64,000 nt of DNA from an uncultured Chloroflexia bacterium (GTDB lineage: Bacteria > Chloroflexota > Limnocylindria > Limnocylindrales > CSP1-4), in the NCBI GenBank assembly GCA_963829295.1, contig CAWHHU010000003.1, positions 360,157 through 424,156 on the forward strand. The letters are read 5' to 3'. The notes under the pieces are model-generated. The model saw nothing but the letters and a program-made list of their open reading frames with translations, searched no databases and was not told the DNA's origin. Made by a program: the position numbers and the translations under genes. How positions within the stretch are numbered: the stretch's first letter is position 1; each line of letters starts with the position of its first letter. Shown here one piece after another: positions 19,829-41,228 of this stretch.

Positions 19829-20638
19829 TCACTCTCCTGCTGGCGACGCCTCGGCCGCCTGGGCCGGTGGCGCTGGCTGCTGAACCGCGGCCGTTGCGGT
19901 CTGGTCGGTGGCTGCTTCGGTCTGGTCGGTGGCTGCTTCGGTCTGAACCGCGGCCGTTGCGGTCTGGTCGGTGGCTGCTTCGGTCTGAACCGCGGCCGTT
20001 GCGGTCTGGTCGGTGGCTGCTTCGGTCTGAACCGCGGCCGTTGCGGTCTGGTCGGTGGCTGCTTCGGTCTGAACCGCGGCCGTTGCGGTCTGGTCGGTGG
20101 CTGCTTCTGGCTCCTCTGGCCTGGGTCCCGGGCTGCGATGCTCGTGGACTCTCGGCTTGTGCACGGAGGCAAGCGTCATGAACATCGACTTGCCCTCGAG
20201 CACCGGTGTGCGGTCGACGGTGCCGTGGTCCTTCACGGCGTCGCCGAACCTCGCGAGGAGGTTCCGCCCGAGCTCCGGATGGGTCAGCTCCCGGCCCCGG
20301 AACCGGACGGTCACCTTGATCCGATCGCCATCCTCGAGGAACTCGATCGCCCGGTGGACCTTGGTCTCGAAGTCACCCGTGCCGATCTTCGGCGAGAGGC
20401 GGACCTCCTTGAACTCAACGGCCCGCTGCTTTCGCTTGGCCTCTTTCTCGCGCTTCGTCAGCTCGTACTTGTACTGCCCGAAATCGAGAAAGCGGACGAC
20501 CGGAGGAGCCGCGGTGGGCGCCACCTCCACGAGGTCGAGCCCCCGGTCCTGCGCCATCGTCATGGCCTGCGGCGTCGGCATGACGCCGAGCTGCGAGCCG
20601 TCCTCGTCGACGACCCGGACCTGAGGGACTCGGATCAT
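19829..20638 (-). CDS. infC: Translation initiation factor IF-3 with ~110-aa repetitive Ala/Thr/Gln-rich C-terminal extension
   Basis: The core is MIRVPQVRVVDEDGSQLGVM...DLVEVAP.A.PPVVRFLDFGQYKYE...EVRLSPKIGTGDFETKV...FLEDGDRIKVTVRFRGRE. It is followed by (EAATDQT/ATAAVQT)n heptad repeats. Confidence 0.9.
   Translation of the reverse strand: MIRVPQVRVVDEDGSQLGVMPTPQAMTMAQDRGLDLVEVAPTAAPPVVRFLDFGQYKYELTKREKEAKRKQRAVEFKEVRLSPKIGTGDFETKVHRAIEFLEDGDRIKVTVRFRGRELTHPELGRNLLARFGDAVKDHGTVDRTPVLEGKSMFMTLASVHKPRVHEHRSPGPRPEEPEAATDQTATAAVQTEAATDQTATAAVQTEAATDQTATAAVQTEAATDQTATAAVQTEAATDQTEAATDQTATAAVQQPAPPAQAAEASPAGE
19876..20108. repeat. About 5.5 copies of a 42-bp (2 x 21 bp) in-frame tandem repeat inside the infC 3' region
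   Basis: Units ggtctggtcggtggctgcttc / ggtctgaaccgcggccgttgc alternate. On the minus strand they encode EAATDQT/ATAAVQT. Confidence 0.85.
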
Positions 20639-23350: not shown

Positions 23351-24337
23351 ATGACCGGTCAAGCGGCCAAGGCCGCGATTGTAGCAACCGAGGGCGACCT
23401 CGGCGCCAACCTCGCCCGCTTCCGGCGCAGCCTGCGCGCCGAGAACGTCAGCCCCAACACGCTCCTCGCCTACGGTGGCGCGGTCGAGCGGCTCGCCGGC
23501 TACCTGACGGCCGAGGCAATGCCGACCGATGTTGGCGCCATTCGCCGCGAGCACATCGAGGCGTTCATCGCGGACGCGCTCGAGCGCTTCAAGCCCGCGA
23601 CCGCCAACCACCGCTTCCGCGGCGTCCAGCGCTTCTTCAACTACCTCGTCGATGAGGGCGAGCTGGCGGCGTCGCCAATGGCCCGGATGCGGCCGCCGCG
23701 CATTCCCGACGACCCGCCCGCGGTCCTGTCCCGGGCCGACCAGGCGCGCCTGCTCACGGCCTGCGAGGGCGCCGACTTCGAGGCGCGGCGCGACCGGGCG
23801 ATCATCAGCGTGTTCCTTGATACCGGGGCCCGTCGGGCCGAGGTGGCCGGTCTGCGCTGGACGCCCGCGGATGACGCGACCAACGACGCCGACCTCGACG
23901 GTCGCGCGATCAGGGTCCTCGGCAAGGGCCGGCGCGAACGGCTGGTCAGGATCGGCCACAAGACCGTCAAGGACCTCGATCGCTACCTCGCCCTGCGGGC
24001 GCGCCACCCGCAGGCGCACCTGGCCGCCCTGTGGATTGGTCGCCGCGGCGCGCTGACCGACTCGGGCATCGGGCAGCTCGTCCAGGAGCGGGGCCGGGCG
24101 GCCGGGCTCGGCGACAACCTCCATCCGCATCAGCTGCGGCACACCTTCGCCCATGAATGGTTGGCGGCCGGCGGAAACGAGGGCGATCTCATGCGGCTCG
24201 CGGGCTGGCGCTCGCGAGCGATGCTCCAGCGCTACGCGGCGTCGACCGCCCAGGACCGCGCGCTCGCTGCCCACGATCGGATCTCAGCCCAAGGATCGCC
24301 TCTGAGGAGACTTGGTCGCTCCGGCCCCGGAACTTAA
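23351..24337 (+). CDS. int: Tyrosine recombinase / phage-type integrase (XerC/XerD-like)
   Basis: N-terminal SAM-like core-binding domain. Catalytic R...HxxR...Y ([28 protein letters not shown]). Confidence 0.9.
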
Positions 24338-27742: not shown

Positions 27743-28684
27743 TCACTCGACGAACCGCGCCAGCGCCGGGATCGTCGCGAACACGCGCTCGTCGAGCCCG
27801 TCGAGCCCGTCGGGCTCAGCCAGGTGGCCCGGCGTGCGCAGGGGCCACGGATCGCCCGTCCAGTGCGGCGCAAGCTCCGAGGTCCGGGCTCGGTCGCCGA
27901 CGGGTGACGTCCAGATCGCGTGGAGCGGATCGACCGCCAGGGTCGGCTCAGCGATGAGCCAGACGTGAATGGGCTCGCTCGGGTGGTCGCCCCGGGCGAT
28001 CAGCCGCCCGAGCGATGAAGCCCGGCGCGGCGAGTCGACAACGATCCCGACATGGACCGGCAGCTCGTCGCGCTGGCGCGCCAGGGCCGAGCGGTAGCGG
28101 CGGACCTTCTCCGGCAGGACGGCGCCGCGCTCGGTGCCGAGGTCGCGCTCGACGAACAGGACGATCGAGCGCCCGCCAACGCGGATGACGGCGAATGCGT
28201 CCGGCCGGAGCCAGCCGCCGAACAGACGCAGACAGGCGCGCTCGGGCACCCAGGCCGCGATCCCGGTCTCTGACCCAAGATCGGCCGCTCGCAGGAACGC
28301 TGCCAGCAGGTCGTGCGTGGCCAGCCCGTGGATGACGGGCGAGGTGACCTCGACGCCTCCGTCGAGCCGCGGCCGGCCGGAGGGCCAGACCAGCCGCTCG
28401 AGCCCGACGCGGGCGGTCTTGGTCAGCGCGTACGCGTAGCGGCCGCGCGGGCGCTGGCGGTTGGCGGCCCAGCCGCCCGACACCAGGCTGTACTCGGCGA
28501 GCCGAGCGAGCCTGCGCTGGGCGATCCGCCGATGGCCGTAGGCGAGCAGCGCCGCGAGCTCGGCAGTGATCACGTCACCGCCTAGGAGCCACAGCAGGAC
28601 CGCCCGGTCGCGCTCGGGAAGCGCGCTCCAGCCGGCGAGCCCCGGGGCGCTCCGGAGCGGGACGACCCGTGCTGTCGTCCTCAC
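27743..28684 (-). CDS. Replication-relaxation family protein (Replic_Relax-like, HTH N-terminus)
   Basis: LPERDRAVLLWLLGGDVITAELAALLAYGHRRIAQRRLARLAEYSLV resembles the Replic_Relax N-terminal wHTH motif (...RHRLAVLHRLGLV..). 313 aa. Confidence 0.65.
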   Translation of the reverse strand: MRTTARVVPLRSAPGLAGWSALPERDRAVLLWLLGGDVITAELAALLAYGHRRIAQRRLARLAEYSLVSGGWAANRQRPRGRYAYALTKTARVGLERLVWPSGRPRLDGGVEVTSPVIHGLATHDLLAAFLRAADLGSETGIAAWVPERACLRLFGGWLRPDAFAVIRVGGRSIVLFVERDLGTERGAVLPEKVRRYRSALARQRDELPVHVGIVVDSPRRASSLGRLIARGDHPSEPIHVWLIAEPTLAVDPLHAIWTSPVGDRARTSELAPHWTGDPWPLRTPGHLAEPDGLDGLDERVFATIPALARFVE

Positions 28685-29166: not shown

Positions 29167-29408
29167 CCCGGATGAATGACCAGCAGGCGATCACATGCGG
29201 GAGCGGACACAAACGAACCGATCACCCGTATGGGGTCCCGCGTCGAAGGTGCGCCGAGCACACACGGACCGCGCGGCAGCAGTGGGGCACGCAAGACCCC
29301 ACGGCGCGACCGATCCATCGACCGACCAAACGCGTGTTTGGCGCCGTTCCGGACGATCGCGTTGTTCCGTTTGTGCAACGTCCCGCGTTTCCCAATTCAG
29401 GGCGACCT

Positions 29409-30496
29409 CAACCAGGGGCTTCATCGACCCTCGATTTCGAGGGCGGCCCAGTCCCATCTCCTCTCCGGCGGCACGGCCATGAACCCCGGAGCCACCGATC
29501 GATCCACGCCGCCGTCGCGAGGGGACGGAGCCTTCCGATCGACCGGCCGGCCGCCGGGCCGCACGGTCACGGCGCCGGCCTCGAGGGTGACGACCCGCCA
29601 CGGCGTCTGCGACCGGCAGGGCGACGGCCCCGACCCTGATTGACACGGCGGACGGCTTGCGCTGGCAGCCATGGTTCCGCCGAGACGTCGAGCGGGCGGT
29701 CGACCGCCGAGGTCAGCCGCCGGCTTCGACCCTAGCCACTTCGGCCGTCGCAGGGAACCCGGATTCCGTGCAAGATTCTGTGTATTGTCAGCTCCGCTAC
29801 GTCCCGATTGACACCCAGAATTACGTGTGCGACGCTCCCATCGTGCTCAAGACGAAGCGGACGTACAACCTCAGCCGGCGGACGATCGAGACGGTTCAGG
29901 CGCTCGCGGAGCGGAAGGTCGCGCCGACCCAGGACGCCCTCGTCGAGCTCGCCGTCGACGAGCTCGCCCGCCATGTCCGCGAGACCGACGAAGCGGCCGC
30001 CTGGGCGGGCGCGGCCACCGATCCGGACTTTGTCGCCGAGGCCGCCGAGCTCGAGGCGGCATATGGCGACGCCGACCCGGCCACGTGGCCGAGACCGTAG
30101 GGCTGCCAGCGCTCCGCTGGGCCGTCGTGATCGTCGGACTCGATCCGGTGGAGGGTCACGAGCAGGCCGGTGAGCGGCGGGCGCTGGTCGTGAGCTATGA
30201 GGCGTTCCACCGCTCGGGGCTGCTGACCGTGTGTCCGATCAGCGCCGCCCGCGAGAAGCCGCGCTATCCGGGCGAGGTCGCGATCCCGGCCGGCGAAGGT
30301 GGCCAGACGAAGTCCGGGCTCATCCTGTGCGCCCAGGTCCGGACGATCTCGGTCCGTCGGATCCGGGCGACCGGCATCCTGCCCGGTGGCGGCGTCGCCC
30401 ACCTCACCGACGCCCGGATCCGCTCGGCGGTGCGAGCGGCCCTTCGACACCACCTCGGGCTCGATATCCCAGCCCAGTCGGACGGGGCGGCGAGCG
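29409..30496. repeat. Copy A of a duplicated 1088-bp segment (operator region + RHH antitoxin + MazF toxin)
   Basis: Identical to 40277..41228 except for a 136-bp deletion in copy B. Diverged (~78%) homology extends left, with 28985-29140 matching 39360-39515. Confidence 0.85.
29843..30100 (+). CDS. Ribbon-helix-helix type antitoxin, cognate to the downstream MazF
   Basis: VLKTKRTYNLSRRTIETVQALAERKVAPTQDALVELAV... is an RHH DNA-binding N-terminus with an acidic C-terminal tail. It is located just upstream of the toxin and overlaps it by 16 nt. Confidence 0.5.
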   Translation: MLKTKRTYNLSRRTIETVQALAERKVAPTQDALVELAVDELARHVRETDEAAAWAGAATDPDFVAEAAELEAAYGDADPATWPRP

Positions 30497-30578: not shown

Positions 30579-33200
30579 CTACTCGCCGCGAAGCGAGGCG
30601 GCCGGAAGCTCCCGATAGACGTGGGCGAGGGGCACCAGCGCGGCCAGCGTGGTGGCAAGGACAGCGCTCAGGAGCGCGAGCCCGAGGCTCACCGCGAATG
30701 CTATGGGCATGACCCTGAGCACTAGCCCGATCGCCCCGACGATCAGCGTCGCTCCGGTGCCGCCTATGCATCCGATCACGATCGCTTGGATCGTGACAAC
30801 GGTCGCGACAGCCCGCCGTGGCCAGCCCAGGGCGCGAAGCGCCCCGAACTCCGCCTGCCGCTCGACATAGCCGAGGGTGACGATCTCTGCGACGGCCAGC
30901 GCTCCGATCACCAGTGTGACCAACGCAACCACGAAGTTGAACGTTCGTGCGCGGGCAGCGATGTGAACGCCGAGCAACGTGGTGTCCAGCTGCCCCGCGA
31001 ACCCGGCAGCCACGAGCGTGGAGCCGCCGACGAGCACCGCGCCGAGGCCAATGGTCACCGCGCCGAGCAGCGCCTCGGTGCGCCGGCTGCCAAGTACCTC
31101 CCTGAGCCCGAGCCCGGGAACAGACGTGACTCGTCGGACCCGTTCCGGGCCTGTACGCATGGCGCGACCGGCTGACGCCCGTGACGACGCGAGAGCCGGA
31201 ACCAACCCGGCCACCCCCGAGATCGCGAGTGCCAGGGGCACCACGGCTGCAAGCTGCCACGGCTCGATCCGGAGCGCAAGGGCGGCCTGCAACGCAGTGG
31301 CGGCCACCAACCCGATCACGGCGACCACCGCGCCCAGGAGCAGGACCTCGATCTCAACGAGGGCTCCGACACGCCATGCGGGCCAGCCCAGGGCGCGCAG
31401 GACGCCAAACTCGGCAACTCGACGCCGACTGGCCAGGTAGGCCGTCGCTGCCACCAGCACCGTGGCAGCGATCAGCACGACGATCAGGATTGCCAGATCC
31501 TGGGTCGCGAGTGCCTGCGCGAAGCGGATCGCCACCCCCTTGACGGACCATTGCTCGGAGACCGTCAGGGCGGGCCGGCCGAAGTCACCGGCTGGCAGGT
31601 CGACGACCACATGGCGGGGCGACGACCCGGCGACGATGTCGACATCGAGCCCGGTCGCGTCGTGGATGTCGGCGGCCACCTGAGCGAGCCGATCCTGGGC
31701 CTCTTGCCCCGGGTTTTCCGTTCCCGCCACGCGGACGCGGATGGCGCTGATGAATGCCGCACCGGCGGCGCCATCGTAGCGAGATGGATCGGCAAGCCAG
31801 GCTGCCGTCTGGAGCGAGACCAGGATGAGTGGCGGGCTGGTCACGTACGACGCCGGAGACCGGGTCGCGCCGAGCTGCCGGCCATCCGCCACCTGAACGG
31901 CCGGCAGTGAATAGGTCTCGAGTCGCCCGCCTGCCAGGATGTCGAAGCCTGGCACGCAGTCAGGGTTGAACTGACCGATAGGGTCCCAGCGGCTGAACAC
32001 TTCCGACCGGCGCTGCTGGTCATGGCGCACCACCGGCCGGAACCAGGTGTCAGTGGACTCGGGCGGGACGTGGGTCGCGCCGCCCGGGGTGATGGTCACG
32101 CTGGACTCATAGATCGAGGGATCGGTCGGTTGAGCATGGGCGGCGAGGTGATCGGGGCCGAGCAGGTCGTAGCTGACGTCGCCGATCGACCACAGCGGTG
32201 ACGTGTCGTAGAACGATCCGCTGTTGAGGGTCGGCAGGAACGCGCGATACGCGTCGTTTGCGCTCGCCGTGCGGCTGTCGACCGGTTGCCACCCCGAGAG
32301 GGTGTCGACACCGTCCTTGGCGAGCACCTCCGGATTCGCCGCGCGCTCGATCGTCATCGTGAGCGTCTCGTCGAGGAACGAGCGGTCGCTGACGAGGACC
32401 GGCAGGACAGGCTGTGGGCCGGCGGGCGAGCTGACCTCTGTCGGCACGTCGGACGCCTGGAGATAGCGACCCTGGGTCACGCACCGGTCGAGGTCGACGA
32501 GGCTGGCCTCCGCAACCGGATCGATGCCGGCGATGACGAACGGCTCCGGGAAGTTCACGAAGGCGCCCGCTGTCCCTGCCGGCAAGCCGCGGACCGGGAG
32601 TGCGTCGGGCGTCTGACCACCAAAGCAGGTGACCGTCGCGTCGCAGGCGATCTCCAGATCACCGACCTCGAGGTGGGCCGCCCCGACCGCGCTGCGCACG
32701 ACCCGGCCCTGGGGCGCGATCACCAGGTAGCCAGCAGGCTCCGGCGGATACCGACTCAGCCCGGCCTCCGCGGTGATGCTGGTCGTGATCCGAAGAACCG
32801 TGACTCCTGTGCCGTCGGCGAGCGACGAGAGATCCACCGGAATGCCGGCCGGCCATTGCACGAAGCCGGCGACCGCGATCGGCGCGGCGACCTCGACCTC
32901 GGGGACCGCGCGGATGCTCGCGAGCTGCGCCTCGGTGATCCCGCCGTACAGGCCGGAGATGGCATTGGGTCTGACCAGGCCCTGCGCCTGCTCGAGTGCG
33001 GTCGCCGACCCCACCGGGCGAACGAGCAGCTGATACGGTCCGCCCCATGCTCGGGTGATGTCGCCTGTCACGCTCGCCTGCGTCGTGCGGGTCGTCCCGG
33101 CCATCAACACGAACCCAATGACCGCGGTGGCCAGGCCAGCTGTTGCGAGGAGGGTGGCGAATCGCCGGGAAGTGATTTCCTGAACTGCGAGCCTGAGCAT
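30579..33200 (-). CDS. ABC transporter permease with two FtsX domains (MacB-like, 873 aa)
   Basis: N-terminal TM, large extracytoplasmic domain, FtsX TM bundle, second ECD, second FtsX bundle. Immediately downstream of the ABC ATPase. Confidence 0.85.
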   Translation of the reverse strand: MLRLAVQEITSRRFATLLATAGLATAVIGFVLMAGTTRTTQASVTGDITRAWGGPYQLLVRPVGSATALEQAQGLVRPNAISGLYGGITEAQLASIRAVPEVEVAAPIAVAGFVQWPAGIPVDLSSLADGTGVTVLRITTSITAEAGLSRYPPEPAGYLVIAPQGRVVRSAVGAAHLEVGDLEIACDATVTCFGGQTPDALPVRGLPAGTAGAFVNFPEPFVIAGIDPVAEASLVDLDRCVTQGRYLQASDVPTEVSSPAGPQPVLPVLVSDRSFLDETLTMTIERAANPEVLAKDGVDTLSGWQPVDSRTASANDAYRAFLPTLNSGSFYDTSPLWSIGDVSYDLLGPDHLAAHAQPTDPSIYESSVTITPGGATHVPPESTDTWFRPVVRHDQQRRSEVFSRWDPIGQFNPDCVPGFDILAGGRLETYSLPAVQVADGRQLGATRSPASYVTSPPLILVSLQTAAWLADPSRYDGAAGAAFISAIRVRVAGTENPGQEAQDRLAQVAADIHDATGLDVDIVAGSSPRHVVVDLPAGDFGRPALTVSEQWSVKGVAIRFAQALATQDLAILIVVLIAATVLVAATAYLASRRRVAEFGVLRALGWPAWRVGALVEIEVLLLGAVVAVIGLVAATALQAALALRIEPWQLAAVVPLALAISGVAGLVPALASSRASAGRAMRTGPERVRRVTSVPGLGLREVLGSRRTEALLGAVTIGLGAVLVGGSTLVAAGFAGQLDTTLLGVHIAARARTFNFVVALVTLVIGALAVAEIVTLGYVERQAEFGALRALGWPRRAVATVVTIQAIVIGCIGGTGATLIVGAIGLVLRVMPIAFAVSLGLALLSAVLATTLAALVPLAHVYRELPAASLRGE

Positions 33201-33208
33201 CGACGCGG

Positions 33209-33940
33209 CTACTCCGCGTCCAGAACATTGACCACGCCGGGCAGGCCTTCGTCCAGGCGCTCGTCGCTGGTCAGGCGTCCGCTCACCAGGTGCAGCACGC
33301 GATCCGCAGCCGCGGCGACCGCGGGATCGTGGGTGGCGACGACGACCGTCAGGTCACTCTCCTCTCGGAGTTGATCGAGATAGGCCATGAACTCGGTGGT
33401 TCGGTCTGCATCAAGGTTCCCGGTTGGCTCGTCAGCGAGCAGCAGCGCGGGCGCACCCACCATCGCGCGTGCCAGCGAGACCCGCTGGCGCTCGCCACCG
33501 GACAGTCGAGCCGGCGGGAAATCGGTCCGATCGGCCAACCCAAGGGAGGCGAGAAGCGTGCGAGCGCGCGGTTCAAGGCTGCGGCGAGACTCCCACGGCA
33601 AGCGTGCGGCGATGACGTTGTCAAGGGCGCTGAGCCCTGGGAGGAGAAACGGCTCCTGGAACACCAGGCCCATGAGCCTGGCACGGAGCGCCGTGCGTTC
33701 GCGGTCGCTGGCGGCGTCCATCGCTTCGCCCAGAACCTTGACGGTTCCGTGGGTCGGTAGATCGAGCCCAGCGATGAGGTTGAGGAGGGTGGTCTTGCCT
33801 GAGCCCGATGGGCCTGTGATGGCAACCGCCTGACCCTGTTGCACCTCAAGGGTGACGTCCAGCAGGGCGGCCACCTCGGTTGGCCCGACCTGATAGACCC
33901 GGGAGAGTGCCTGGAGCTCGATGGCCGGCAGCAGGCGCAT
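33209..33940 (-). CDS. ABC transporter ATP-binding protein (MacB/LolD-type)
   Basis: Walker A GPSGSGKTTLLN. Signature LSGGERQRVSLARA. Walker B LLLADEPTGNLD. H-loop. Start MRLLPAIELQ at 33940. Confidence 0.9.
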   Translation of the reverse strand: MRLLPAIELQALSRVYQVGPTEVAALLDVTLEVQQGQAVAITGPSGSGKTTLLNLIAGLDLPTHGTVKVLGEAMDAASDRERTALRARLMGLVFQEPFLLPGLSALDNVIAARLPWESRRSLEPRARTLLASLGLADRTDFPPARLSGGERQRVSLARAMVGAPALLLADEPTGNLDADRTTEFMAYLDQLREESDLTVVVATHDPAVAAAADRVLHLVSGRLTSDERLDEGLPGVVNVLDAE

Positions 33941-34497
33941 CAGGCGAGCTTGGCGGACCTCGTGCCCACTCGCCTGCGCGCCCGAGTGCGCGCCACGACC
34001 GCCGATGACGTGTCGTGGATATGGGTGGCCCACCGAAGGTCGGCTTCAGTACGCCGGATCTCGCGGTCGAGGGCGGATTGACCAAAGCCTTCGTCCCCGG
34101 GAATTCCACGTCGGGCGGCTCGAAGCCGATGCAGCTCAACCGTGCGCTCACGGACGACGGTCTCGGCGAGCGCGTCAAATCGATCGGGAATGGCGAGCCT
34201 CGCAACAGCCAGACGCACGACGATCTCGTCGGCCGTGCTCGGTTCCCAGAGCCAGGCCTCTGCAACACGACGACCAGCAGGTGTCAGCGTGAGGAGGTGG
34301 CGATCGGGCCGGCTCACCTGACGGACTCGGCGGGGATCGACCAGCCCATCGCGCTCCATGCGCCCGAGCGTGAGATAGACCTGACTGGTGCGGGTCGACC
34401 AGAGGGGGCCGAGCTCGGCCTCGAGCGTGATCACGAGCTCATAGCCATAGGAGGGTCCCACGAGGAGAAGTGCGGCGATTGCCCCATGCAGGTTCAT
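33940..34497 (-). CDS. PadR-family transcriptional regulator
   Basis: GYELVITLEAELGPLWSTRTSQVYLTLGRMERDGLV is a PadR winged-HTH. It is followed by a C-terminal helical domain. Confidence 0.8.
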   Translation of the reverse strand: MNLHGAIAALLLVGPSYGYELVITLEAELGPLWSTRTSQVYLTLGRMERDGLVDPRRVRQVSRPDRHLLTLTPAGRRVAEAWLWEPSTADEIVVRLAVARLAIPDRFDALAETVVRERTVELHRLRAARRGIPGDEGFGQSALDREIRRTEADLRWATHIHDTSSAVVARTRARRRVGTRSAKLA

Positions 34498-34847
34498 GCT
34501 CGGGCGGTCATCCGGTGGCCCGCAGAGGAGAGCATGGCCAACACCCGAGACAACCCGGCGCCAAGTTGCTGGTCGGCAATTCGACCATCGCGCACCAGGA
34601 ACGTATGCGGAGTGGCCTGCGCCCCGAAGTCGTCTCGCACCCTCCCCTCCCGATCGGTCACACAGGAGGCACCAGGGATTCGGACCAGCTCAGCGAGTGA
34701 GCCATCATTTGGCGTCTCCGGCTCGATTACGATAATCGGCCAGTCTTCTGGCACCACTGCCTCATTGAGCCCTGCCAACAGGTCGCGACAGGGTCGGCGA
34801 TCGAGGTGAGAGGCCACCACGTCGGTCACATTGCCCATTCTGTTCAC
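34494..34847 (-). CDS. Thioredoxin-fold TlpA/MauD-like protein lacking the CXXC motif (degenerate paralogue of 37879..38412)
   Basis: ...TPHTFLVRDGRIADQQLG aligns with ...SPFAIHVRDGVVRAKGV of the MauD-like protein. Only PCRD sits where CGIC is expected. The ORF overlaps the padR start by 4 nt. Confidence 0.45.
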   Translation of the reverse strand: MNRMGNVTDVVASHLDRRPCRDLLAGLNEAVVPEDWPIIVIEPETPNDGSLAELVRIPGASCVTDREGRVRDDFGAQATPHTFLVRDGRIADQQLGAGLSRVLAMLSSAGHRMTARA

Positions 34848-34926
34848 GAAACCCGCCTCCTGATACTCTACTGTAGATTATTCTTCAGTCGTCAAGAGCA
34901 CGCGGGCAGACCTCTTTGGGACCCTG

Positions 34927-35212
34927 GTGGACGTCTGGCAACTCTTCGCTCGGGCCTTCTACATCTCGCTCCTCGTCCTGTCAGTGCGCGTCAAGACACG
35001 AATGATTGAGGTCGCCGAGGTCACCTTGGCCGTCGGCCCTCGTGCTTGTCCGAGGGGCCGTTCCATGGATCGAAACGATCGCGATGTTCGGTGTGTTTTC
35101 GGTGGCTCAGGCCTGGAGTTGGAGGAGAGGCGGAACCCACGGCTGTCATTGCTTCGGCGCAGATGAAATCATCGGGGTGTCACCCTGGGGGGCAGCCTAC
35201 CTCTGGCACTGA
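34927..35212 (+). pseudogene. MauE/DoxX-like membrane protein remnant (frameshifted)
   Basis: IAMFGVFSVAQAWSWRRGGTHGCHCFGADE matches AALFIGFAVVQAFMARRHPGLRCGCYGQLDE of the MauE-like protein at 38415..38906, including the C-x-C-(F/Y)-G motif. The N-terminal portion lies in a different frame (34927 versus 35006). Confidence 0.4.
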
Positions 35213-35539
35213 TCGCGATCGGCACGGTCGTGCTCACACACCGGTGCTCGATCGGCCGGTTGACACCTCCGACGGTCCGTTGTCGTGTCTTTGGCGTCTC
35301 CGCGGTCGACAGCCGCGACCACGTCGCGACCGGTGCGCATTCCGGGGAATCCGATCGCCCATTCCGGGGTTTTCGATCACCCTCGGTCGGAGGCCGCGGA
35401 GCGGCCGACACGAGGGCTGGTTCAGCCCCTGATGGTCACCTCCTCTCGATGGTCTGCGGGTAGTCTGGCACGCCGCCCGTGGTGGACGACGGTGTCGACG
35501 CGTCCGGGGCCGGTGCGACCCCGGCTGGGTCGTCGGGAG

Positions 35540-35732
35540 CCTTGACCGTCCGGCGGCTCGAGTCGCCCTTGAGCTCCAGCCCGTAGGCGTTGTGGACCAG
35601 GCGGTCGAGGATCGCGTCGGCGACGGTGGGCTCGCCCAAGGCCTCGTGCCAGTGCCCGACCGGGAGCCGGCTCGTGACGATGGTCGAGCGCAGGCCTCCG
35701 CGATCCTCGATCACCTCCAGCAGGTCGGCCGC
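35540..35732 (-). pseudogene. IS21-family IstB-like helper ATPase C-terminal fragment
   Basis: ...TSRLPVGHWHEALGEPTVADAILDRLVHNAYGLELKGDSSRR matches the IstB C-terminal signature (TSN...EW.E.FGD...A.AILDRL.HH.....I.GESYR). There is no upstream ATPase core. Confidence 0.45.
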
Positions 35733-36058
35733 CCGGGCGGGAGGCACCGGGGAGAGCCGATCCCGATCAGCGACCCGTGAACGGGCGAGATCCGGGCGGC
35801 GCAGCTGTTCGTGGCGGTGATCGGCGCGTCTTCGTACACGTACGCCGAGGCGACGCCGTCCCAGGAGCTGCCCCACTGGCCTGGGCGCCTTCAAGAAGCG
35901 TGCACGCCGTGGCCAGGGCTGGCCGCTCGCGCGCCGAAGCAGAGCCGAACATCGAAGAGGCTGCGCTCCCCGCCGGCATCATCCCGGGAGGGCTTGAGAA
36001 TGGTCCAGCGAGGAACAGGTGCCGAGCATCCCCTTGCGGCCCAGCGCTGCGCTGCCTG

Positions 36059-36697
36059 TCAGCCAGGTGGGACCTTGTCTCGACCCCCAGTCGAGGGGAC
36101 CCCGGTAACCAAGAAGACATCAACTATCGAGAAGCCGATACCGTCAACTTGGTACGCGAAGCAGCCTGGACCCCCTACCAATGTAAGAGACGGCCATGTT
36201 CGTTCGACGCCAGGGGTCCCTGGAGGGAAGAGGAGTTCGCCGGCTGCCGGCTGGCCGCTCAAGATGAAGGTCACGGAGCCTGGTATGTCGAGTTGAGCTC
36301 CTCGGATCTGAATTGGCCCGGCATACTGAGCCGCAGCAAACCACAGAACCTTGATCTGATAGAGCGAACCAGAGCGCGCTCCAAGGGGTTGGCTTCCCTC
36401 GTTGCCGAACCCAACGGGATACACCGGGCCGACGCCCAGCGCAGGTCCGACGCTCGGCGAGACATCGCTCCCGGTGGAGACCGGGCAGTCATCAAGAGCC
36501 CGATGCAGAGTTAGCAGCCGATTGGGGATCGACGTCAGGTTCGTGTTGCCCGCGCTAGACCCGAGAATTGCACTGGCACCTCCGGACGCGACTAACGTGG
36601 CAAGGATCCCGAGGATGACGATGGCGGTCGCGACAAGAATGCCGACGCGCTGCGTGGAAAGGATCGTATGCAGGCGCGGCGGGCTCGGGCTGCGCAT
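36059..36697 (-). CDS. Membrane-anchored extracytoplasmic hypothetical protein
   Basis: N-terminal signal-anchor ([24 protein letters not shown]) then a ~170-aa domain. Low-GC region. No recognisable family. Confidence 0.4.
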
Positions 36698-36720
36698 GGG
36701 ATCAGACGACGACGGGACCA

Positions 36721-37284
36721 TTAAATCGATCGGGCAATGACGAGCCAAGCCAGGAAGAGCATGGCGAGATCGAGCATCCGAAACAACCTCCACCGCCCAG
36801 TGAAGGCCATTGCTACGCGCGCTGGATCCGTGCGGGTCGACAGGAGGCCAACAAGGAGGGGGACCCATCGTCCTACTCCATATGCGACAGCGGAGAACCC
36901 TGCTAGGTCACCACGCCCAGTCAGCCACCCGATGACGAGAGTCGCCAGCCAGGCGCCATAGGGTGCTTTGGTAGCCAACCCCGTTCCAAGAAAGATCCCA
37001 TATCTCGTGGCGCCGAGCAAAGGGCGCTCACGCATCCATCCTCGTGGCACCTGCCAGCCAGACTGGGGTACCCGGTGCATGAGGCTTGCCAAGAACAAGA
37101 TGCTGACGGCGACAAGCGCGGCGACCGGCCACCATGCAGATCGAGGCGTTACTATACCAATCGCACCGACAGCGACAAATACCGATCCCGCACCGACCAA
37201 TAGCCCACCCAAGTGCAAGATACTTGCTGCTACAACTCTAGGTAGTGATGCCACCTCGACCAGGGGCCTGATCGTCATGATCAT
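36721..37284 (-). CDS. Polytopic membrane protein (4-6 TM, Cys-free), hypothetical
   Basis: Hydrophobic helices throughout. Downstream of the Cys-rich gene, low GC. Confidence 0.45.
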   Translation of the reverse strand: MIMTIRPLVEVASLPRVVAASILHLGGLLVGAGSVFVAVGAIGIVTPRSAWWPVAALVAVSILFLASLMHRVPQSGWQVPRGWMRERPLLGATRYGIFLGTGLATKAPYGAWLATLVIGWLTGRGDLAGFSAVAYGVGRWVPLLVGLLSTRTDPARVAMAFTGRWRLFRMLDLAMLFLAWLVIARSI

Positions 37285-37370
37285 GTTGGCCCCTCACGGC
37301 AACGAGCCGGTCGACACCCCCGCAAATAGCGCAAGCATCACCGCCGTCTCGCCAACGTCCATCGGCGCCC

Positions 37371-37877
37371 TCAGCAGTTTGGATTAACCCCGGTCAGCTT
37401 CCGATCCCTTGGCTGGACAAATACCGGTGAGTCCGGCACGCCCCTTGGGAGGGCATGATTGTCACGATACGCGCAGCCACACGCGTATGTATTGCACGCG
37501 CCTGCTGGGCACCAACAATCACAGCAGTACCAAAGAACGCCATAACAGACAGCAGACCAACAGTTGCCTGGACTCCAGTATTCCGTGTCCGGATAGCACC
37601 CGCCCTGACACGAAGATCCGCTCGATGAACACTTGCTCGACGGGCAATTCACTCCTCCCGGAGGGCTACAGCAGGCAATCGCCTCAACGTCCAGAACGCC
37701 CAAGGCACCTTCGGCCAGTGACGCCGCCGTCGCCGCGAATACGAACTGGAGACCCCTCCGCAAGAGCTGTCTACGATTGCGCCGACGCGCGAACTCCTCC
37801 GCAGCAAGGCCGAATGATCCGGGCTGTGCTTCCCGATCGAACTCCAGTCTGGGCGAGTTCGGATCATCTCCTGTCAT
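37371..37877 (-). CDS. Tat-signal, cysteine-rich (16 Cys, 4 Trp) small secreted protein with local MauA-like (methylamine dehydrogenase light chain) motifs
   Basis: ATG at 37877 has a strong SD (GAGGAGGG) and lies 1 nt after the MauD-like stop. The ~60-aa leader carries RRRNRRQLLRRGLQFVFAATAASLA (twin-arginine). The mature region is IACCSPPGGVNCPSSKCSSSGSSCQGGCYPDTEYWSPGNCWSAVCYGVLWYCCDCWCPAGACNTYACGCAYRDNH. Compare MauA ICDCSGGSLTNCPPGT...ASW57VASCY...YRDCCG. Confidence 0.6.
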   Translation of the reverse strand: MTGDDPNSPRLEFDREAQPGSFGLAAEEFARRRNRRQLLRRGLQFVFAATAASLAEGALGVLDVEAIACCSPPGGVNCPSSKCSSSGSSCQGGCYPDTEYWSPGNCWSAVCYGVLWYCCDCWCPAGACNTYACGCAYRDNHALPRGVPDSPVFVQPRDRKLTGVNPNC

Positions 37878-37878
37878 A

Positions 37879-38412
37879 TCAGCCCTCCTCAGAGCGGGGG
37901 TGTTCCAGGTTCTCAATCCGGAATAGGTCAATCGCGTGGTTTACGACGCCCTTGGCCCTAACCACCCCATCTCTGACATGTATCGCAAAGGGGCTCACTC
38001 GAACCCGAAGCCTCGAGGCCAGATCAGAATCCGTACCGGCAGCCTCCAATCCAGATGCAGCTGCCCAGTAGGGAAGAGCGCCGCCGTCGGTCTGTACGAG
38101 CAGGTGAAGACCAAGGTGGTCAATCTCTTGGCGCTCGAAAGTGCCAAGCTCTTCGATCAAGCTCTCGCAGATCCCGCAGCCGTTCAGACCGAACAACAAG
38201 AGGTGGTTGCCGCTAGAAACATCGATGCTGCCGTCATGTACACGGACTTGATCAAGGCTCGTGCCCACTCGTGGACCATCGCGCGTCGTTGCGCCCCGCG
38301 TGCGCAGATACAGATGACCGAGCTCTCGGTACAGCGACAGCAGTAGCACAAGAATAGCGACGACCACGAGCCAAAGCAGGACGTAGCTGGCGACAAAGAA
38401 ACCTCCGCTCAT
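37879..38412 (-). CDS. MauD-like membrane-anchored thioredoxin-fold thiol-disulfide oxidoreductase (CGIC active site)
   Basis: N-terminal TM anchor, then LLLFGLNGCGICESL (CXXC) and the thioredoxin fold. Located between the MauE-like gene and the Cys-rich gene. Confidence 0.6.
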   Translation of the reverse strand: MSGGFFVASYVLLWLVVVAILVLLLSLYRELGHLYLRTRGATTRDGPRVGTSLDQVRVHDGSIDVSSGNHLLLFGLNGCGICESLIEELGTFERQEIDHLGLHLLVQTDGGALPYWAAASGLEAAGTDSDLASRLRVRVSPFAIHVRDGVVRAKGVVNHAIDLFRIENLEHPRSEEG

Positions 38413-38414
38413 GG

Positions 38415-38906
38415 TCAGGCTACTTCGTAGAAGTGACGCACAGCGCCAAGAATCAGGGCACCAAGCGGAATGATCGCGCCAGCAATGCGAATGGTAATCG
38501 CATCAGCCATGGCTTCTTCTGGAAGCGACTGCCGGCCGAAGCTCAGCCAGATGAGTAGCAACCCCAGAGAGAGGAAGACAACGGCGTGCACGTACGAGTA
38601 CGTGGCAGCTTCGTCCAATTGTCCGTAGCACCCGCAGCGCAGCCCGGGATGGCGGCGCGCCATGAACGCTTGTACGACAGCAAATCCGATGAAGAGCGCC
38701 GCCGCCGGCACCGCAAACGGCTGTGGGCCGAGCAACAGCAGGCCGGCGAAGACCTCAGCGAGGACGAGAGTCCCAATCAGCGTTGCGCGACGTCGGTCCG
38801 TTGGCCACGCGACGTCCGCCGTCCCACGCATCAACTTGCCTGCAGCGGCCCCGAGAAGGATCCAACCCCCGCCAAATGCGGCGACCCAGTAGAGGCTCGA
38901 ATCCAT
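38415..38906 (-). CDS. MauE/DoxX-family membrane protein
   Basis: A 4-TM, ~160-aa protein with RCGCYG in TM3, as in methylamine-utilisation MauE-like proteins. Its stop lies 2 nt before the MauD-like start. Confidence 0.55.
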   Translation of the reverse strand: MDSSLYWVAAFGGGWILLGAAAGKLMRGTADVAWPTDRRRATLIGTLVLAEVFAGLLLLGPQPFAVPAAALFIGFAVVQAFMARRHPGLRCGCYGQLDEAATYSYVHAVVFLSLGLLLIWLSFGRQSLPEEAMADAITIRIAGAIIPLGALILGAVRHFYEVA

Positions 38907-40120: not shown

Positions 40121-40276
40121 AAGCTGAGCGGTCGTGGCAACGTCGCAGCGGCAGAGAATCCGCGGGCGGGCCCGGTCACGGGTGCGGAGGCACCCCGGAT
40201 CGATGACTAGCCGGCGATCACATGCGGGAGCGGATCATGACGAGGCCCAGATCTCGCACGCGTTCGAGGACATGCT

Positions 40277-41228
40277 CAACCAGGGGCTTCATCGACCCTC
40301 GATTTCGAGGGCGGCCCAGTCCCATCTCCTCTCCGGCGGCACGGCCATGAACCCCGGAGCCACCGATCGATCCACGCCGCCGTCGCGAGGGGACGGAGCC
40401 TTCCGATCGACCGGCCGGCCGCCGGGCCGCACGGTCACGGCGCCGGCCTCGAGGGTGACGACCCGCCACGGCGTCTGCGACCGGCAGGGCGACGGCCCCG
40501 ACCCTGATTGACACGGCGGACGGCTTGCGCTGGCAGCCATGGTTCCGCCGAGACGTCGAGCGGGCGGTCGACCGCCGAGGTCAGCCGCCGGCTTCGACCC
40601 TAGCCACTTCGGCCGTCGCAGGGAACCCGGATTCCGTGCAAGATTCTGTGTATTGTCAGCTCCGCTACGTCCCGATTGACACCCACGATGACGTGTGCAA
40701 CGCTCCCATCGTGCTCAAGACGAAGCGGCCGCCTGGGCGGGCGCGGCCACCGATCCCGACTTTGTCGGCGAGGCCGCCGAGCTCGAGGCGGCATATGGCG
40801 ACGCCGAGCCGGCCACGTGGCCGAGACCGTAGGGCTGCCAGCGCTCCGCTGGGCCGTCGTGATCGTCGGACTCGATCCGGTGGAGGGTCACGAGCAGGCC
40901 GGTGAGCGGCGGGCGCTGGTCGTGAGCTATGAGGCGTTCCACCGCTCGGGGCTGCTGACCGTGTGTCCGATCAGCGCCGCCCGCGAGAAGCCGCGCTATC
41001 CGGGCGAGGTCGCGATCCCGGCCGGCGAAGGTGGCCAGACGAAGTCCGGGCTCATCCTGTGCGCCCAGGTCCGGACGATCTCGGTCCGTCGGATCCGGGC
41101 GACCGGCATCCTGCCCGGTGGCGGCGTCGCCCACCTCACCGACGCCCGGATCCGCTCGGCGGTGCGAGCGGCCCTCCGACACCACCTCGGGCTCGATATC
41201 CCAGCCCAGTCGGACGGGGCGGCGAGCG
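40277..41228. repeat. Copy B of the duplicated TA segment, with an internal 136-bp deletion
   Basis: Identical to 29409..30496 minus the 136 bp between two GACGAAGCGG direct repeats (A: 29851-29860 and 29987-29996). Confidence 0.85.
40711..40832 (+). pseudogene. RHH antitoxin remnant (RHH domain deleted, downstream frame shifted)
   Basis: VLKTKR is followed directly by the post-deletion sequence. The 136-nt deletion is not a multiple of 3. Confidence 0.5.

Follow-up and report, generated by a model that had tools for sequence, protein, structure and literature searches.

We analyzed a 64,000-nucleotide (nt) stretch of a contig from an uncultured Chloroflexia bacterium (CAWHHU010000003.1, positions 360,157 to 424,156; hereafter "the window"), centered on a minus-strand operon in which a short open reading frame (ORF) of 117 amino acids (aa) is followed, in tight order, by genes for a PadR-family regulator (padR), an ATP-binding cassette (ABC) ATPase, and a permease with two FtsX modules. 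We consider it likely that this operon, together with a divergent MauE-like remnant, is a decayed copy of a module that elsewhere encodes a cysteine-rich precursor peptide, a thioredoxin-like (Trx) protein, and MauE, and that it consists today of a deletion chimera and an orphaned, PadR-controlled type VII ABC pump that has been kept. What the window displays is ordinary gene decay, inside a cluster type that is uncharacterized but conserved. A first-pass annotation of the sequence had proposed that this island holds a second Mau-like module in degenerate form, and both the chimera and the MauE pseudogene described below support that proposal.

The 117-aa ORF (34494..34847, minus strand, GTG start), as resolved by blastn and protein alignments, joins the remains of two genes. 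In the related contig L001, blastn aligned it as two segments, window positions 34850-34795 with L001 2663-2719 (81% identity) and window positions 34793-34317 with L001 3256-3732 (69%), and the 536 nt of L001 between both segments are replaced by 1 nt in the window. The precursor and Trx genes of L001 are in different frames, and the 535-nt net loss fuses them in frame. Codons 1-18 (34847-34794, minus strand) are the leader, through the twin arginine, of the gene for a 12-Cys precursor with a twin-arginine translocation (Tat) signal, and match the L001 leader at 11 of 18 residues (MNRMGNVTDVVASHLDRR in the window versus MDRLSDLSDAVASHLDRR in L001). Codons 19-117 (34793-34494, minus strand) are the C-terminal ~55% of the gene for a membrane-anchored, CxPC-containing thioredoxin-like protein, and full-length proteins of 175-180 aa align with the ORF from PCR(D/E)L onward, i.e., over their C-terminal ~55% to two-thirds. 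The deletion junction falls within codon 18 (34793..34796, minus strand; DRR|PCRD), the blastn end points being one base apart, and yields ...DRRPCRD... where full-length homologues have C-x-P-C-R-E. Lost were the precursor gene after its twin arginine and the first ~80 Trx codons, with the membrane anchor, the native first strand, and the first Cys of CxPC among the deleted parts; PCRD is the surviving second half of that motif. As judged from these alignments, the ORF is a chimera created by a ~535-nt in-frame deletion and not a point-mutated, redox-dead thioredoxin. It had earlier been described as a thioredoxin-fold MauD paralogue with PCRD in place of CGIC; a relation to thioredoxins does hold at the profile level, but the motif that was lost is CxPC, and it was lost by deletion rather than substitution. 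The chimera is not an assembly artefact, because a second assembly (L004; Logan, ERR11718636) is 100% identical over 1884 nt across the junction.

Other properties of the ORF are in line with this origin. No CxxC was found at the start of helix 1, where the ORF has RRPC and intact relatives have CQPC, CWPC, CGPC, CEPC, or similar, and no transmembrane (TM) or hydrophobic segment was predicted, while the L006 Trx protein and the MauD-like protein encoded elsewhere in the window do have anchors. The ORF matched nothing in Pfam and, in NCBIfam, only DsbE at 14.3 bits (cut-off 123), with no match to the MauD model TIGR02661. When 5.8 billion proteins were searched, just three matched apart from the ORF itself; these are full length (175-180 aa) and have an N-terminal hydrophobic anchor and CxPC, and the same short form was found nowhere else. 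An AlphaFold2 model of the ORF from a 5-sequence alignment had a mean predicted local distance difference test (pLDDT) score of 52 and a predicted template modeling (pTM) score of 0.37, too low for a fold search. The chimera is thus a clean, reconstructed case of an in-frame deletion that fuses neighboring genes into a puzzling "active-site-less" ORF, and warns against reading function into such ORFs.

The divergent side of the locus has decayed as well. A MauE pseudogene (34915..35245, plus strand), delineated by tblastn and hidden Markov model (HMM) searches, lies divergently upstream of the padR operon and keeps the GCHCFG motif, but it has been frameshifted twice, has lost ~74 nt internally, and is truncated at its 3' end. 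Used as a tblastn query, the L001 MauE matched 34915-35001 with its residues 1-29; 35039-35191 with residues 67-117, in another frame and with 61% identity, including AQAWSW.RGG.HGCHCFGADE; and, weakly, ~35182-35244 with residues 115-135, back in the first frame. Residues 30-66 (~37, the ~74-nt deletion) and 136-185 (~50) are gone from the remnant. Its plus-strand segment 35006-35212 scored 26.3 bits against Pfam MauE (PF07291; profile positions 62-110 of 128), just short of the gathering cut-off of 27, the gene being split over at least two frames; against a custom MauE HMM built from neighboring loci, the remnant scored 62.7 bits (E 4e-17). The GCHCFG of this segment aligns to the invariant CxC of the family. 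The frameshifted, opposite-strand MauE remnant of the first-pass annotation is thereby confirmed, although the three MauE-like sequences it had counted reduce to two that custom HMM and hhalign searches could detect in the window: a 187-aa membrane protein (37284-36721), considered as the third, was rejected with an hhalign probability of 0.1%. By their sequences, all three production genes of this module (precursor, Trx, and MauE) are dead in the window, each through a structural lesion.

The module is intact in six other contigs, from Chloroflexota and unclassified metagenomes (L001, L002, L003, L005, L006, and L023), in the order Cys-rich precursor, Trx(CxPC), PadR, ABC ATPase, and FtsX permease, with MauE divergent from the precursor gene. 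Its parts include a ~116-aa Tat precursor with a 12-Cys tail, a ~178-aa anchored CxPC Trx-like protein, and a ~870-aa permease. The contigs of the three full-length Trx relatives found in the protein search each encode a Cys-rich protein of 115-116 aa, Trx, PadR, ABC, and permease, and L001 also has MauE divergently upstream. In L006 (7179-12583), whose permease is 75% identical to that of the window, a minus-strand MauE diverges from genes for the Cys-rich protein (116 aa), Trx(CEPC), PadR, ABC, and FtsX. In the precursors of 115-116 aa, the twin-arginine signal is DRRRFLA...AxA, and the last ~50 residues form a tail that contains 11-12 Cys. We also observed a conserved, acidic, helix-like N-region before the twin arginine in the precursors of L001, L002, L003, L005, L006, L017, L019, L023, and L028, with the pattern M-D/E-x-L-x-x-L/V-x-x-x-V/A-x-x-x-L-x-RRRFL, unusually long and conserved for a Tat n-region.

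Upstream of the precursor gene, seven loci share the arrangement TTGAC, ~10 nt, ATAATC, ~6 nt, AGACTAT, GGAG, and start codon. The corresponding promoter and putative operator region of the window (34856..34895, minus strand; five- and seven-locus alignments) includes the conserved TTGACG (34895-34890) and ATAATC (34881-34876), the palindrome TCTACAGTAGA (34877-34867) in an A+T-rich stretch, and the Shine-Dalgarno sequence AGGAGG (34861-34856) upstream of the GTG, all on the minus strand. The chimeric ORF is still under the promoter, ribosome-binding site, and start codon of the precursor gene. In L002, L003, and L005, the center of this region is TATAATC-N7-GACTATA, an imperfect inverted repeat at the would-be -10 position, which we infer to be a putative PadR operator. 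At the other end of the ORF, its TGA stop and the padR ATG overlap in a 4-nt ATGA (34497-34494), confirming the earlier description of an ORF that overlaps the padR start and heads the padR-ATPase-permease operon. The same 4-nt overlap of Trx and padR appears in gene calls of L001, L002, and L006. Since intact loci share both the promoter region and this overlap, the link between Trx and exporter is ancestral gene order. The first-pass view of a module welded to an exporter consequently stands as far as a physical and translational join is concerned, but not as a secondary fusion.

Downstream of the chimera, the regulator and pump genes (30579-34497, minus strand) are intact, i.e., full length and with conserved family positions kept. 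The PadR-family regulator (33940..34497, 185 aa, C-terminal domain present) scored 47.2 bits against PF03551 (gathering cut-off 27), placing it among winged-helix PadR proteins, and is 69% identical to the L006 PadR. The ATPase gene (33209..33940, 243 aa), also supported by a gene call in L004, starts within the padR stop with a 1-nt overlap; its product scored 115.5 bits against PF00005 (ABC_tran) and is 73% identical to that of L006, the closest intact locus. It has a nucleotide-binding domain (NBD) of the type VII kind (MacB/LolD/FtsE/YbbA-like), and its best NCBIfam models were LolD, the MacB NBD, YbbA, and FtsE, every one below its equivalog cut-off. A relative-rate test detected no excess of window-specific changes in PadR or the ATPase. 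The permease (30579..33200, 873 aa) carries two FtsX modules (Pfam FtsX, 54.5 bits over two stretches), is covered at 100% by ~60 homologues of 860-900 aa, and, of the 91 positions without variation among the other 14 sequences of the alignment, differs at only 3, a count that falls within the range of intact homologues. Hydropathy places TM1 at residues 14-32, three peaks at 569-668, and more peaks between 714 and 837, so that the ~530 aa from TM1 to the next TM (569) make up an extracytoplasmic domain, as expected of a type VII ABC permease. This is not MacB proper: against the MacB model NF007826 (cut-off 966), the permease reached 16.5 bits and the ATPase 193 bits, and the ATPase is a separate gene.

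GTDB species genomes were scanned with a permease alignment, giving 78 loci in Chloroflexota, Dormibacterota, and Actinomycetota, and partner genes were sought in the flanks by tblastn, custom HMMs, and a Tat-plus-Cys pattern. Eighteen close loci combined usable flanks with a permease of at least 41% identity; these include L006-L008, which came from a separate exact protein look-up. A Trx gene was present in seven of them (L006, L013, L014, L017, L019, L023, and L028), with or without MauE and a Cys-rich precursor. Among loci whose permeases are only 24-29% identical, precursor, MauE, and Trx occur together in L032, L047, and L086, and MauE with Trx in L054; in several Streptomyces and Micromonospora loci, a Trx-like gene adjoins the permease. 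The association of Cys-rich product, thiol-disulfide genes, and PadR-ABC exporter, which the first-pass annotation had anticipated, is thus found again in 7 of 18 close loci and in several distant ones, with varied gene orders across Chloroflexota, Dormibacterota, and Actinomycetota and beside permeases that are 24% to 75% identical. A parallel scan of GTDB species genomes with the Trx alignment gave no match and missed the window's own genome too.

Several observations weigh against reading the locus as the remains of a peptide module with its pump. In 11 of the 18 close loci, PadR-ABC-FtsX genes stand alone, with no Trx, MauE, or Cys-rich gene nearby, and the function of the pump may then be general and unrelated to the peptide; in L014 (8111-13065), Trx(CQAC), PadR, ABC, FtsX, and MauE occur together with no Cys-rich precursor detected nearby. 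The role of the pump is read solely from gene neighborhood and the presence of a Tat signal, the operator is placed solely by conservation, and a scan for consensus sigma-70 promoters misses the conserved promoter region. Within the Trx-derived part of the chimera, 0 of 8 invariant and 2 of 20 conserved (≥80%) positions are changed, which is no excess by leave-one-out comparison. The last point bears on the suggestion that the ORF persists as a CXXC-less, redox-dead chaperone or substrate-binding adaptor of the exporter. The ORF is indeed open and in frame behind a strong Shine-Dalgarno sequence, keeps conserved C-terminal family positions including ATPHTFLVRDGR and the second Cys, and has a Trx-like secondary-structure pattern in the AlphaFold2 model, if only at pLDDT 52. 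Yet its N-terminus is the leader of another gene, it has no anchor, unlike the full-length relatives examined, its native first strand and first Cys are deleted, its partners precursor and MauE are dead, and no other database protein has this form, so we regard an adaptor role as improbable and the retained redox-dead thioredoxin of the first-pass annotation as a unique deletion chimera. Conservation of the CXXC-less form in related islands was likewise not found, although the parent family does have a predicted thioredoxin fold. A relative-rate test of the Trx remnant with true outgroups was not significant (10-11 versus 6-9 changes); an apparent excess with L001 as outgroup (23 versus 4) was discarded as invalid, because L001 is the sister of L006 (55 of 62 PadR residues identical). 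Synonymous sites are saturated at the 55-58% amino-acid identity of the sequences compared, which precludes dN/dS. With no excess change in the Trx part, the sequence fits a recent deletion and continued constraint alike. A recent deletion is favored because the form is unique and structurally crippled. The chimeric ORF probably has no redox role and matters only as a translated leader cistron coupled to padR.

Two further alternatives concern the pump. It could be a general drug or envelope-stress efflux system to which the redox and peptide genes are no more than frequent neighbors in mobile DNA, an idea that draws on the lone three-gene cassettes and on an island rich in mobile elements (integrase, Replic_Relax, IS5 and IS21 fragments, a toxin-antitoxin pair). 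We consider this unlikely, given the Trx/padR overlap in L001, L002, and L006, the single promoter region upstream of the precursor in seven loci, and the recurrence of the association in three phyla over a wide range of permease identities. Far less probable still is that Trx and MauE serve to oxidize the permease itself and that, in the window, the neighboring MauE/MauD pair has taken over. Cysteines 186 and 192 of the permease ectodomain are invariant and 240 and 415 near-invariant among 15 homologues, and they may form structural disulfides; L014 combines Trx and MauE with a pump, with no precursor gene detected; most close pump homologues, however, have no dedicated Trx or MauE, and where Trx is present the Cys-rich precursor is usually directly beside it. 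According to the first-pass annotation, an exporter found widely without Cys-rich or Mau-like partners would be unrelated to them, and this holds in part, with 11 of the close loci unpartnered and 7 partnered. Taken together, lone, partnered, and distant loci show that the exporter is a self-sufficient cassette that has repeatedly, and ancestrally in the lineage of the window, been joined to peptide and redox genes. We retain the interpretation of a decayed module with a surviving pump, which probably serves peptide immunity or resistance.

Under this interpretation, the 12-Cys peptide of the intact module, once exported, would be oxidized jointly by MauE, acting as a quinone-linked source of disulfides that resembles DsbB and has CXC as its active site, and by the anchored Trx in the part of DsbA. 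The conserved inverted repeat that overlaps the promoter would be the site where PadR represses the operon. The type VII ABC pump would shield the producing cell from the peptide or rid the envelope of it; the pump is unlikely to be the peptide translocase, because the precursor brings a Tat signal of its own. In the window, the ~535-nt deletion fused the stumps of precursor and Trx genes in frame into the 117-aa ORF, and MauE was knocked out separately, by two frameshifts and an internal deletion, with its 3' end lost near an IS21-type sequence. Translation of the chimera would at most keep padR translationally coupled, and the PadR/ABC/FtsX half would survive under its native promoter as an autonomous inducible pump, either as orphan immunity or resistance or in the service of an intact Mau-like module 2 kb away. 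More tentatively, the intact loci could represent an undescribed class of disulfide-rich toxins, in which a Tat-exported 12-Cys peptide of ~55 residues would be oxidized by MauE and anchored Trx and matched by a PadR-controlled type VII immunity pump; the bacterium of the window would then be a "cheater" that lost production and kept immunity, or the pump would have been re-used by the intact Mau-like module next door.

The neighboring module (36059..38906, minus strand), identified through Pfam, NCBIfam, and the Tat-plus-Cys pattern, comprises five ORFs: MauE (38906-38415; Pfam MauE, 46.7 bits), a MauD-like thioredoxin with CGIC (38412-37879; TIGR02661, E 1.3e-7, below cut-off), a 186-aa Cys-rich protein with a Tat motif and 13 Cys within a stretch of 60 residues (37931-37371), and two further ORFs of unassigned function; the 187-aa membrane protein that is not a MauE lies within the same interval. 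It has no ABC pump of its own. In the metagenomic contig L005 (JADEYI010002900.1, 1168-7835), both module types likewise lie side by side, with MauE, Trx(CSSC), and a Cys-rich gene on one strand and a Cys-rich gene, Trx(CEPC), PadR, and ABC on the other. Because the intact module of the window lacks a pump and L005 pairs both module types, the surviving pump may now serve this neighbor. An IS481-like transposase remnant lies between the two modules of L005.

The two modules of the window are related through their thioredoxins only at a distance. Pairwise BLASTP between the ORF and the CGIC MauD-like protein of the window was not significant (E 0.66), and only profile methods connect them: in hhalign, the Trx family and the MauD-like family of the neighboring module matched with 96.6% probability (E 7e-10), with CxxC and cis-Pro aligned. 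The Trx family profile matched a thioredoxin oxidoreductase in the PDB (E 0.0025, CxxC and cis-Pro aligned) and then many thioredoxins, pointing to a thioredoxin fold for the parent family of the Trx part of the chimera. An HMM search of 1.84 billion representative proteins gave 663 Trx relatives at E ≤1e-3, 68 of them at ≤1e-10 and only 2 at ≤1e-30; the best matches are mostly ~180 aa long and match from near the N-terminus, and 0 of 10 relatives tested reached a curated NCBIfam model. Some relatives are 340-700 aa long and match over two or three separate stretches (P0133, P0138, P0154, P0157, and others); these may be tandem or fused forms. The Cys-rich precursors form an even rarer family of 6 clusters, all hypothetical or unnamed, and had no match in Pfam even at E up to 1; homology to a methylamine dehydrogenase (MADH) light chain was sought and not found. 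K, E, CxC, and G do not vary among the seven MauE proteins of these loci that were aligned.

The locus lies within mobile DNA, which includes a tyrosine recombinase (integrase; 23351-24337), a Replic_Relax gene (27743-28684, minus strand), an IS5-type transposase, IS21 fragments, and a toxin-antitoxin pair. The Replic_Relax protein is 60% identical to that of L001 (603-1544), which adjoins the L001 MauE, and this gene common to window and L001 suggests that the module travels on a plasmid-like or integrative element. Starting ~90 nt past the end of the truncated MauE pseudogene, an IS21-type remnant (35334..35894, minus strand; Pfam, inverted repeat) comprises an IstB fragment (35894-35436, minus strand; IstB_IS21, 66.9 bits, profile positions 164-234 of 238 only), i.e., the C-terminal ~70 residues, and an element end (35475-35334, minus strand) with a 143-nt inverted copy at 41456-41314. 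The two copies of this inverted pair (35334-35475 / 41456-41314) are 75% identical, each consists of an istB tail plus an IS21-type element end, and they bracket the intact Mau-like module and the second copy of the toxin-antitoxin genes; this arrangement suggests an IS21-mediated rearrangement. The PemK/MazF toxin-antitoxin genes occur as direct copies (29407-30496 / 40275-41228, 99% identical) that flank a ~9-10-kb segment holding both Mau-like modules, and in the second copy the toxin ORF is intact but the presumed antitoxin ORF lacks ~126-136 nt, the joined ends overlapping by 10 nt. Farther away, positions 19897-20107 hold a tandem duplication of two overlapping ~169-nt copies, offset by 42 nt and 96% identical.

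The wider value of this locus lies in the intact module to which it leads, for which neither the peptide nor the Trx protein has a curated protein family and on which, as a combined module, a literature search returned nothing specific. Its components nonetheless resemble parts of known systems. Type VII ABC pumps with a separate ATPase and two FtsX modules per chain include YbbA/YbbP of E. coli and the BceAB-type and YknYZ-type peptide-resistance pumps, whereas MacB is a homodimer with a fused NBD and four TM helices. The window pump shares with this group an ATPase nearest to LolD, the MacB NBD, YbbA, and FtsE, and a permease with two FtsX modules and a large extracytoplasmic domain; it differs in that no NCBIfam equivalog cut-off is reached and that no adaptor or outer-membrane partner gene was identified here. 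For the regulation, a parallel is LmrR-LmrCD of Lactococcus, a PadR-repressed efflux operon with the PadR box ATGT-N8-ACAT. In both systems, a PadR-family gene heads the ABC genes that it presumably controls, and an inverted repeat overlaps the promoter, but the regulator here is the second or third gene, after peptide and Trx, and the putative operator TATAATC-N7-GACTATA is unlike ATGT-N8-ACAT.

The redox half recalls the methylamine dehydrogenase cluster: in both, MauE and an N-terminally anchored Trx-like protein are encoded beside a small, very Cys-rich secreted protein, and MauA carries a Tat signal. In Paracoccus denitrificans, mauE-mauD lie with mauA in this cluster, in the description of van der Palen et al. 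1997 as cited in PMC7794033. By comparison, neither mauB nor mauG nor any further mau gene was seen in the 24-42 kb region of the window that was examined, the Trx protein has a CxPC motif and falls short of TIGR02661, no Pfam family covers the Cys-rich product, which is not recognized as a MADH light chain either, and PadR and an ABC pump are coupled to the module. A further likeness in gene content comes from decRiPPter, a genome-mining study that reported three candidate families of peptides that are ribosomally synthesized and then modified post-translationally (RiPPs) in Streptomyces with mauE, one also with mauD (Kloosterman et al. 2020, PMC7794033). The precursors of these families have at least 8 Cys and lie outside any mau cluster, and the families were read as peptide-modification clusters, none of them characterized (PMC7794033). 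As in the loci described here, mauE, with or without mauD, adjoins a Cys-rich predicted precursor; those families are from Streptomyces, while our loci come mostly from metagenome-assembled genomes (MAGs) of Chloroflexota and Dormibacterota.

Finally, the chemistry proposed for the module has a precedent in MauE proteins that replace DsbB in E. coli, for which CXC is essential and a conserved Lys and Glu are predicted to hold the quinone (bioRxiv 10.64898/2026.03.05.709764). The MauE proteins of these loci have the same CXC, Lys, and Glu, and the remnant in the window keeps GCHCFG. The proteins of that study come from Calditrichota and Thermodesulfobacteriota and act as generalist oxidases (bioRxiv 10.64898/2026.03.05.709764), whereas here a small cluster has a dedicated MauE, which in the window is a pseudogene. 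Overall, the intact loci would represent a natural, client-specific system for the DsbB-like chemistry of MauE and a candidate source of disulfide-rich secreted peptides.

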